This document shows, piece by piece, positions 24,901-25,507 of a DNA stretch of 64,000 nucleotides. A program made the translations under genes and the position numbers. Origin of the DNA: Pecten maximus (lineage: Eukaryota). Numbering within the stretch: position 1 is the stretch's first letter; each line of letters opens with the position of its first letter. The notes beneath the pieces were generated by a model. The model searched no databases, was not told the DNA's origin, and worked only from the letters and a program-made list of their open reading frames with translations. The stretch covers positions 24,056,001-24,120,000 of the forward strand of contig NC_047023.1 of the NCBI RefSeq assembly GCF_902652985.1, in the 5' to 3' direction.

Positions 24901-25507
24901 TATAAGTCTACCATGATTGCTATGCAACGCCAGTTTTGATTGGTTCAAAACCATGTATTATTTTCAAATAATACACGCTCGTGCCAATAATACACGCTCG
25001 TGAATCACGGCTGTTACAATTTTATATATCTAAAATTCCCGAGTGGGCTAATGGGTTAGTCTTTCAATACATTTTTATCACGACGCGAGTTCAAATCCTA
25101 CGGAGGCCCCCCTTTTTTTCTTTTTCATTTTTTTTTTATTCTTTTTTTTTTATTTTCAAAATCAATGTCATATGATAGATGCTTTTGATCGTAGTACTGT
25201 ATTGCCTGTATATTTCATCAACAAATAATGCAATACTCAAGAAATAAATTGCAAGTTTTCTCCCGGGGTTTCTTTGCTGTTTTTCTATTAGAAAGAGGTC
25301 GATCTCAGAACTAAACAGTACATGGTAGAATAGAAATAATCAGCTTTGACTCGTGTATTGTTGCAGGATATACAACTCGGACTCGGATATTTTGCAATTT
25401 TAATTAAAAACTCAGGCCTGCGGCCTTCGTTATTAATTTAATTGCAAAATATCCTCGTCCTCGTTGTATATACTGCAACAATACACTCATCATCGTTAAT
25501 TATTTCT
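24901..25507 (+). mobile_element. Second family of hairpin-ended non-autonomous element
   Basis: TCTACCATG (24908-24916) is inverted at CATGGTAGA (25321-25329), immediately followed by a ~175-bp hairpin (25332-25507); same layout as the 11781 family but unrelated sequence. Confidence 0.6.

Follow-up and report, generated by a model that had tools for sequence, protein, structure and literature searches.

The hairpin at 25332-25507 of the window (the whole 64,000-nucleotide stretch analyzed here) probably terminates a non-autonomous transposon of the CryptonA type. This element likely moves in the form of one folded DNA strand, which the tyrosine recombinase of its parent is predicted to insert by a single strand exchange. 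The hairpin belongs to a family with a common anatomy, in which GA/GA mismatches are fixed to one strand, insertion is precise, the join between element ends is invariant and the target follows a recurrent pattern.

The hairpin and its element

The foldback at 25332-25507 is more stable than all 200 of its shuffled counterparts (z = -15.9 on the minus strand and -12.8 on the plus strand; 0/200 fold as well), and it displays the TC/TC loops on the plus strand and the TGC loop that a preliminary description had reported (Table 1). Of the four 2x2 bubbles claimed there, three are family-wide in what we here call the F1 family; the outermost is instead private to the window copy (1/30 top F1 copies; 0/39 further F1 arms, several of them unreadable at that place), and it is 3x3 on the plus strand, becoming 2x2 on the minus strand via a G.T pair. 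When both strands were folded, RNA parameters favored the minus strand by 7-10 kcal/mol; the nearest-neighbor DNA energies of the two strands (-54.0 versus -53.4 kcal/mol) show no real difference.

The F1 copy in the window is 605 bp long and gene-less, and it shares one A with its target at either end. Its empty allele joins 24904 to 25510, skipping 605 bp with 1 ambiguous base, and was recovered as one contig in each of 4/4 public runs, one of which may be the source sample. The consensus of the 30 top copies is 627 bp, and 1,497 first-look candidates were found in the genome. A sister subfamily, F1b, has ends in common with F1 (30 loci). The tRNA-like stretch inside F1 is likely captured, because it is missing from F1b; ARAGORN gives no tRNA gene in it, and Rfam returned no match at gathering score on locus L231, with sub-threshold miRNA matches far below those scores. 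A young solo LTR lies in an F1b copy (L234:1655-2115; 759 candidates, with pairs about 4.1 kb apart).

The two window copies of a second family, F2 (451 bp; 2,212 first-look candidates), carry their hairpins at 12068-12228 and about 33408-33568, and the empty form of the first copy was found in 1 contig from 1/4 public runs. F1 and F2 are alike in anatomy: neither has terminal inverted repeats, and each repeats its first 11-14 bases in inverted form immediately inward of the hairpin. The common plan is a short left end, its inverted copy inside the element and a terminal hairpin of 140-190 nt. The same tip code had been claimed for F2 on the same relative strand, and both copies do carry GA/GA and a GCA loop on the minus strand. 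Their description as unrelated elements is correct for the stem sequences but not for the elements themselves, which fall in one superfamily and are probably all CryptonA-type. The left part of F2 contains two 25-bp palindromic repeats (11834-11899 and 33172-33222) that are related to the hairpin motif and, unlike it, carry a self-complementary TA core. The F2 copy at 11781 is itself nested in another repeat of moderate copy number (11400-11780 and 12233-12600).

Elsewhere in the window, the loose ends of a high-copy fragment at 24080-24131 resemble a tRNA-derived SINE, a 29-bp satellite of 142 copies occupies 49886-54748 next to a short tandem run of a related repeat, and there are many other minisatellites.

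Table 1. Coordinates of the F1 and F2 features in the window
Feature	Position	Strand	Remarks
F1, non-autonomous CryptonA-type element, whole copy	24905..25510	+	Empty allele and ends from 30 copies
Left target half of F1: TA, six free bases, shared A	24897..24905	+	Flank logo
F1 left end ("a"; roughly 11-14 nt)	24905..24915	+	Matches, inverted, the sequence immediately inward of the hairpin
Two short copies of the hairpin-base motif	24970..25003	+	From sequence; possible extra recombinase sites
tRNA-like stretch and T run within F1	25041..25160	+	A/B-box-like by eye; other sequence in F1b
Inner inverted copy of the F1 left end	25321..25331	-	Would pair with the left end once the ends are joined
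F1 terminal hairpin	25332..25510	-	Loop C-GCA-G; three GA/GA tandems shared by the family, in YGAR context; fourth tandem private
TC/TC loops of the F1 hairpin	25412-13/25427-28, 25383-84/25455-56, 25377-78/25461-62, 25351-52/25487-88	+	
Triloop TGC of the F1 hairpin	25419-21	+	
Right target half of F1: one base, then TA	25511..25513	+	Flank logo
F2 copy 1, 451 bp, one T shared	11781..12232	+	Deletion derivative of the 3.2-kb element at L184/L185/L186, by alignment
F2 copy 1, inner inverted left end and hairpin	12053..12232	-	Tip retains GA/GA and the GCA loop; outer bubble healed
F2 copy 2	33119..33572	+	Hairpin with both GA/GA tandems and a GCA loop on the minus strand

Conservation of GA/GA bubbles and loops among copies and families

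Genome-wide searches of the 918-Mb genome with tip patterns that left the bubble and loop positions free recovered 784 F1 and 1,139 F2-type tips. In the first 50 F1 tips listed, GA/GA is kept in 46 (with GNA as well in 43), healed in 1 and point-decayed in 3; in the first 50 F2-type tips, it is kept in 44 (with GNA as well in 43), healed in 1 and otherwise changed in 5. The bubbles are therefore a family consensus and not copy-specific decay. In the same F2-type tips the loop differs in its middle base alone (GCA 21, GAA 21, GTA 1), and none of the first 50 tips listed for either type combines GA/GA with a same-strand TNC loop. All three F1 family bubbles are intact in 29/30 top F1 copies, a figure biased because these copies were picked for their likeness.

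This strand bias extends across families. A set of 186 hairpins from 1.44 Mb fell into 30 clusters, 15 of them with GA/GA tandems, and none of the leading cluster signatures mixes GA/GA and TC/TC on one strand. Copies within a family are not independent. In 14 GA-bearing families, taken as one representative each, 27/32 2x2 loops are GA/GA, of which 14 are present by selection, the families having been chosen for a GA loop; 26/27 have YGAR context on both sides. The L104/L105 family was omitted from this set, its scanned copy being rearranged. Sheared tandem G.A pairs in YGAR context are unusually stable in DNA. The portion of PMC6061790 available to us mentions sheared G.A structures and contains no stability data for CGAG. 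The cGNAg rule put forward for the loop holds for 7/14 of these families, whose GA strands otherwise carry GNNA (4 families) or pyrimidine loops (TCT, TCT and TTT); moreover, a TCC loop on the GA strand of the L106 copy places a GNA loop on the other strand. As parts of PMC5449611 describe, GNA loops with sheared pairs mark the overhangs of Streptomyces telomeres. G.T outnumbers A.C by 12 to 4, a bias that is not significant (p = 0.08). The hairpin arms, of 79-87 bp, are AT-rich.

Fully flipped hairpins were counted in 2/30 L095-family arms and 2/51 F2 arms, many arms being unreadable; flipped or healed copies could be genuine or the result of misassembly. Hairpins that are flipped, healed or have swapped arms occur at L090:264-437, L134:4484-4665, L105:6004-6172, L124 and L137, and may reflect flip-flop isomers, palindrome correction or assembly error. 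At L183 and L208, left ends are fused to a hairpin bearing the right terminus on both arms, and L137 holds an inverted pair of copies; all three are possible aberrant products of the recombinase. Near-perfect hairpins without GA bubbles, with GAA and GCTA loops, are found at L212:2481-2649, L215:2392-2559 and L218:2490-2653, which are recombinase elements of one distant clade.

Element joins and the target site

Patterns of a right end, a gap (0-12 or 0-14 free bases permitted) and a left end matched 5 F2 and 9 F1 places, with an invariant join in 5/5 and 9/9, respectively, and control patterns gave no matches. All 14/14 places are head-to-tail dimers or parts thereof. Such dimers could also come from insertion beside an old copy and are not proof of free circles; no end-to-end circle joint at the F1 and F2 copies is present among the public-run matches listed. 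When the join is folded in prediction, the hairpin lengthens to take in the left end, leaving a bulge of 2 nt. In 4/4 families with a real join (F1, F2, the L095 family and L322, the last a metagenome locus from another organism), the joined strand exceeds the inner strand by 2 nt. The idea of an attC-like substrate thus gains from the joined ends, which, on these predicted folds, form an asymmetric site.

The flanks follow a regular plan: W-T-A, six free bases, one fixed base, the join, one base and T-A. In the left-flank logo of F1, the A of TA is present in 43/50 and the shared A in 49/50, and the right flanks of F1 have T in 58/64 and A in 57/64; the fixed base of F2 is T in 40/40 left flanks. 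The fixed base may be a one-base homology, because it is also the last base of the element and the base opposite in the inner arm. The target resembles TA-8 nt-TA; if the 8 nt are taken as a spacer between TA arms, the join sits between its bases 7 and 8. A Cre-type enzyme acting on loxP cuts the lower strand between spacer bases 7 and 8. By analogy, the join would correspond to the Cre-type cut place on the GA strand, the register being built on this loxP chemistry. The six free target bases and the lack of carried flank would fit one exchange, not two.

Recombinase-coding parents

The genome holds at least 150 matches to the DUF3504 domain (the best 150 of 327 candidates) and at least 100 to Phage_integrase (the best 100 of 670), and 100 wider stretches around such matches were extracted. 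F2 positions 1-228 and 220-451 bracket the recombinase gene of a 3.2-kb element found at L184, L185 and L186, with 94-98% identity in the 3' part. This gene has three exons with GT-AG-like borders and encodes a tyrosine recombinase that matches the Pfam domain DUF3504 at 54 bits (cutoff, 29.7). Judged by this alignment, F2 is an internal deletion derivative of a recombinase-coding CryptonA-type element, and the search for autonomous partners with the same ends is answered by these 3.2-kb elements, which carry the F2 ends.

For F1, L214 is the likely parent predicted from sequence comparison. It has a recombinase exon with R-K-H-R-H-Y and a tail, followed by the F1 3' end at 92-93% identity, and 680 bp of that tail is located within the F1 variant L383. 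The F1 5' half (L396) lies 17 kb upstream of the L214 recombinase part, and the alignment of L214 with F1 leaves a 495-bp link uncovered. L396:2769-3330 and L214:2913-5630 form a possible split F1 parent with another recombinase gene between them. An N-terminal fragment encoded by F1 has weak similarity to the N-termini of L107 and L104 (E values of 0.005 and 0.018; 16 sequences) and gives no score against the recombinase profile. Because the F2 parent and the likely F1 parent both encode a CryptonA-type recombinase, the two families are probably cousins. Of the two mobilizing enzymes that had been suggested, the tyrosine recombinase is favored by the DUF3504 parent of F2 and the likely F1 parent, and an HUH/rolling-circle enzyme is not supported, because the F2 parent encodes a recombinase. 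Several other candidates were rejected: an unrelated LTR inserted in L234 as a match to an F1 parent; the F1b copies (the best 150 of 211 candidates), which are non-autonomous and lack a long frame; and, in L096 and L086, F2 copies lying next to recombinase genes, which are nested insertions and not element ends.

Six other hairpin-ended or related elements also encode DUF3504 proteins. At L091, L095, L103, L104/L105, L108, L141 and others, hairpin ends of unrelated sequence share a common anatomy. The catalytic R-H-R-Y set is complete in L091, L108 and L214; in L095, L103, L104, L107 and the F2 parent, Q, T or Y stands in place of the first His (H-x-x-R). At E values of 0.001 or less, DUF3504, Phage_integrase and a weak QRICH1 are the only Pfam domains in the parents, with neither GCR1_C nor another accessory domain, and a Pfam search of the parent proteins found no domain of a polymerase, primase or HUH enzyme. 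The L091 frame is intact, with the full catalytic set, and its protein model, built from 14 sequences (pLDDT of 71.9; 35 for a single-sequence fold), best matches QRICH1 and Cre, with an E value of 1e-8 for Cre. In L091, L104 and L107, a short, beta-rich-looking module without a Pfam match precedes the recombinase and is a candidate reader of the hairpin.

A GA-type hairpin lies within 2 kb of 32/99 recombinase loci versus 0/9 DIRS/Ngaro-type loci; the 67/99 recombinase loci without one include many fragments. In 31/34 hairpins the GA strand, read from the hairpin end, runs into the element, whichever way the gene points; this count covers the extracted loci, a few of which are nested elements and many of which are copies of one family. 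In a second clade (L139, L141, L142, L146, L181, L182, L192-L195 and L199), the gene is opposite and the GA hairpin lies upstream on the coding strand. Relatives were also found on 80 metagenome contigs, where 7 loci of about 4-5 families carry GA-type hairpins, 6 of the 7 with an 11-18-nt inverted copy of the inner flank; none were found in viral contigs.

Proposed mechanism and alternative explanations

Taking these findings together, we propose the following route. The right and left ends would be joined, presumably in a circle, and the GA strand would fold up as a single long duplex, the left end pairing with its inner copy. This would create a pair of recombinase arms flanking a spacer that has two additional bases on the joined strand. 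The enzyme would then cut the joined GA strand and the same strand of the TA-8 nt-TA target and swap them via the one shared base, with replication probably resolving the junction. The sheared G.A pairs and the GNA/GNNA loops would let the GA strand alone, and not the TC/TC strand, fold fast and continuously; in the duplex form they would also interrupt what would otherwise be a perfect palindrome. For excision or copy-out, the same strand would go through this step in reverse. Against this folded-strand reading stand the equal DNA energies of the two strands, the pyrimidine loops of 3/14 families, the bubble-free L212/L215/L218 clade and the flipped or healed copies.

Two alternatives would retain double-stranded DNA. 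An arm extruded as a cruciform from a supercoiled double-stranded circle, with the GA arm as the stable one, would make a free single strand unneeded and would account for every sequence feature of the folded-strand reading; the arms are AT-rich and some 80 bp long, and attC is described in the accessible part of PMC3458562 as able to recombine from cruciforms. Bubbles near the tip should, however, hinder extrusion of the TC arm, and we regard this explanation as unlikely. Slightly less likely still is ordinary double-strand recombination, in which the CTCG words would be same-orientation protein sites or palindrome breakers against deletion and the hairpin an array of binding sites. Similar motifs do occur outside the hairpin near the left ends (F1 24970-25003 and the F2 25-bp repeat), healed and flipped copies exist, one clade lacks bubbles, and CryptonF follows a duplex microhomology model (PMC9977147, as far as its text was available). 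Such a route nonetheless leaves unexplained the GA/GA loops in YGAR context over unrelated stems (27/32), the confinement of loop variation to GNA, the inner inverted left-end copy with its constant 2-nt offset, and the six free target bases without carried flank.

The hairpin could also serve mainly as a replication origin or self-primer for copying the excised element, as folded telomeres do, with integration being separate. The GNA loops and sheared pairs recall those of Streptomyces telomere overhangs (in the sections of PMC5449611 seen), active Cryptons gain copies despite excision (PMC9977147, in the part available), and some loci (L090, L134, L183 and L208) show flipped hairpins or left ends joined to a hairpin that is two-sided. 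Yet the parent proteins have no polymerase, primase or HUH domain, the flipped forms are a minority that may be assembly or polishing errors, and the geometry of the join points to the recombinase site itself; we hold this role to be improbable. A structure acting in RNA, as an antisense hairpin, small-RNA source or regulator, would agree with the minus strand being favored by 7-10 kcal/mol under RNA parameters. It is very improbable, given that the GA strand, always reading inward from the DNA end, is antisense in one clade but sense in another with respect to the gene, that GNA triloops are a DNA motif in what we have of PMC5449611, and that the Rfam matches lie far below gathering scores. 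Least credible of all are Helentron/HINE-type rolling-circle elements with an HUH enzyme: the subterminal inverted 11-14-mers, 3' palindrome, lack of duplication and tandem copies are alike (PMC4067079, in the part available), but the tyrosine recombinase in the F2 parent contradicts this for F2, the arms measure 79-87 bp and not 5-10, and F1 inserts at A and not at TT.

Beyond the window, we give an even chance to the broader proposal that the CryptonA transposons of animals are the first eukaryotic tyrosine-recombinase elements to recombine as folded ssDNA, with strand choice by sheared G.A pairs, one-base homology and TA-N8-TA precision. The sole model so far for Crypton movement is duplex microhomology in fungal and algal CryptonF; a single-strand route, if true, would also explain Crypton copy gain. 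If right, it would place an integron-like single-strand route in animal genomes, make available a compact recombinase, consisting of one protein, for insertion without scars and provide a classification rule for many hairpin-ended repeats, which are likely filed as Helitron-like or unknown. The anatomy names the substrate, strand, cut position and target, and the proposal is therefore testable with oligonucleotides and one protein.

Relationship to known systems

CryptonA elements, in the part of the account of Kojima and Jurka (2011; PMC3212892) available to us, have a single DUF3504/tyrosine recombinase gene, a length of 2-3 kb and no GCR1_C; they lack terminal inverted repeats, and short derivatives with both ends in common are abundant. 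The present elements resemble them in all these respects. That account lists no terminal repeats for animal Cryptons and gives "n.d." in all CryptonA rows. The elements studied here depart from that description: they end in a long hairpin, repeat the left end inverted inside the element, share a one-base core with the target and insert at a TA-N8-TA site. Their empty alleles with one shared base, differing ends and lack of multibase target duplication are as expected of CryptonA ends; by protein and ends they are probable CryptonA members, the subterminal inverted copy being absent from the paper's description. The text of a 2026 CryptonA paper is without the words "hairpin" and "circular." Among the matches listed in the Crypton literature, Repbase reports and most subscription papers being outside the search, there is no description of the hairpin design.

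The ends of Eulor5/Eulor6 and of the salmon Crypton-N1 may resemble those of F1. In the portion of PMC5753468 seen, these too are non-autonomous animal Cryptons, and the words "hairpin" and "inverted repeat" are absent from its text. CryptonF-1_cRei and the Goodwin model, as far as PMC9977147 and PMC13465315 were accessible, likewise feature no true target duplication, clean empty sites and copy gain; CryptonF uses a five-base target homology, whereas one base and a hairpin take its place here. Helentron/HINE elements, in the available portion of PMC4067079, also have subterminal inverted repeats (12-15 bp there, 11-14 nt here), a 3' palindrome and no duplication, but they have an HUH Rep/helicase partner, a short palindrome of 5-10 bp and a TT target, in contrast to the recombinase of the F2 parent.

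Recombination of a folded single strand has been shown for the attC bottom strand (PMC3458562) and for the CTXphi attP(+) site (PMC4246890), both sources being available in part. As with attC and IntI in PMC3458562, the site here is an imperfect palindrome, used as one strand and asymmetric in its spacer on folding, and the predicted route would likewise combine a single exchange with replication; strand choice, made in attC via extrahelical bases, would here fall to GA/GA versus TC/TC loops. Unlike attC, the present elements are eukaryotic and carry their own recombinase, their mechanism being a proposal. The likeness to CTXphi attP(+) and XerCD (PMC4246890) lies in a folded site of about 150 nt, homology needed only beside the cut and a full site present only before integration; CTXphi relies on host enzymes and one dif site, whereas the elements here have thousands of degenerate AT-rich targets. 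New in this analysis are the precise insertion with one shared base, the invariant dimer join, the 2-nt asymmetry in four families and the probable TA-8 nt-TA target.
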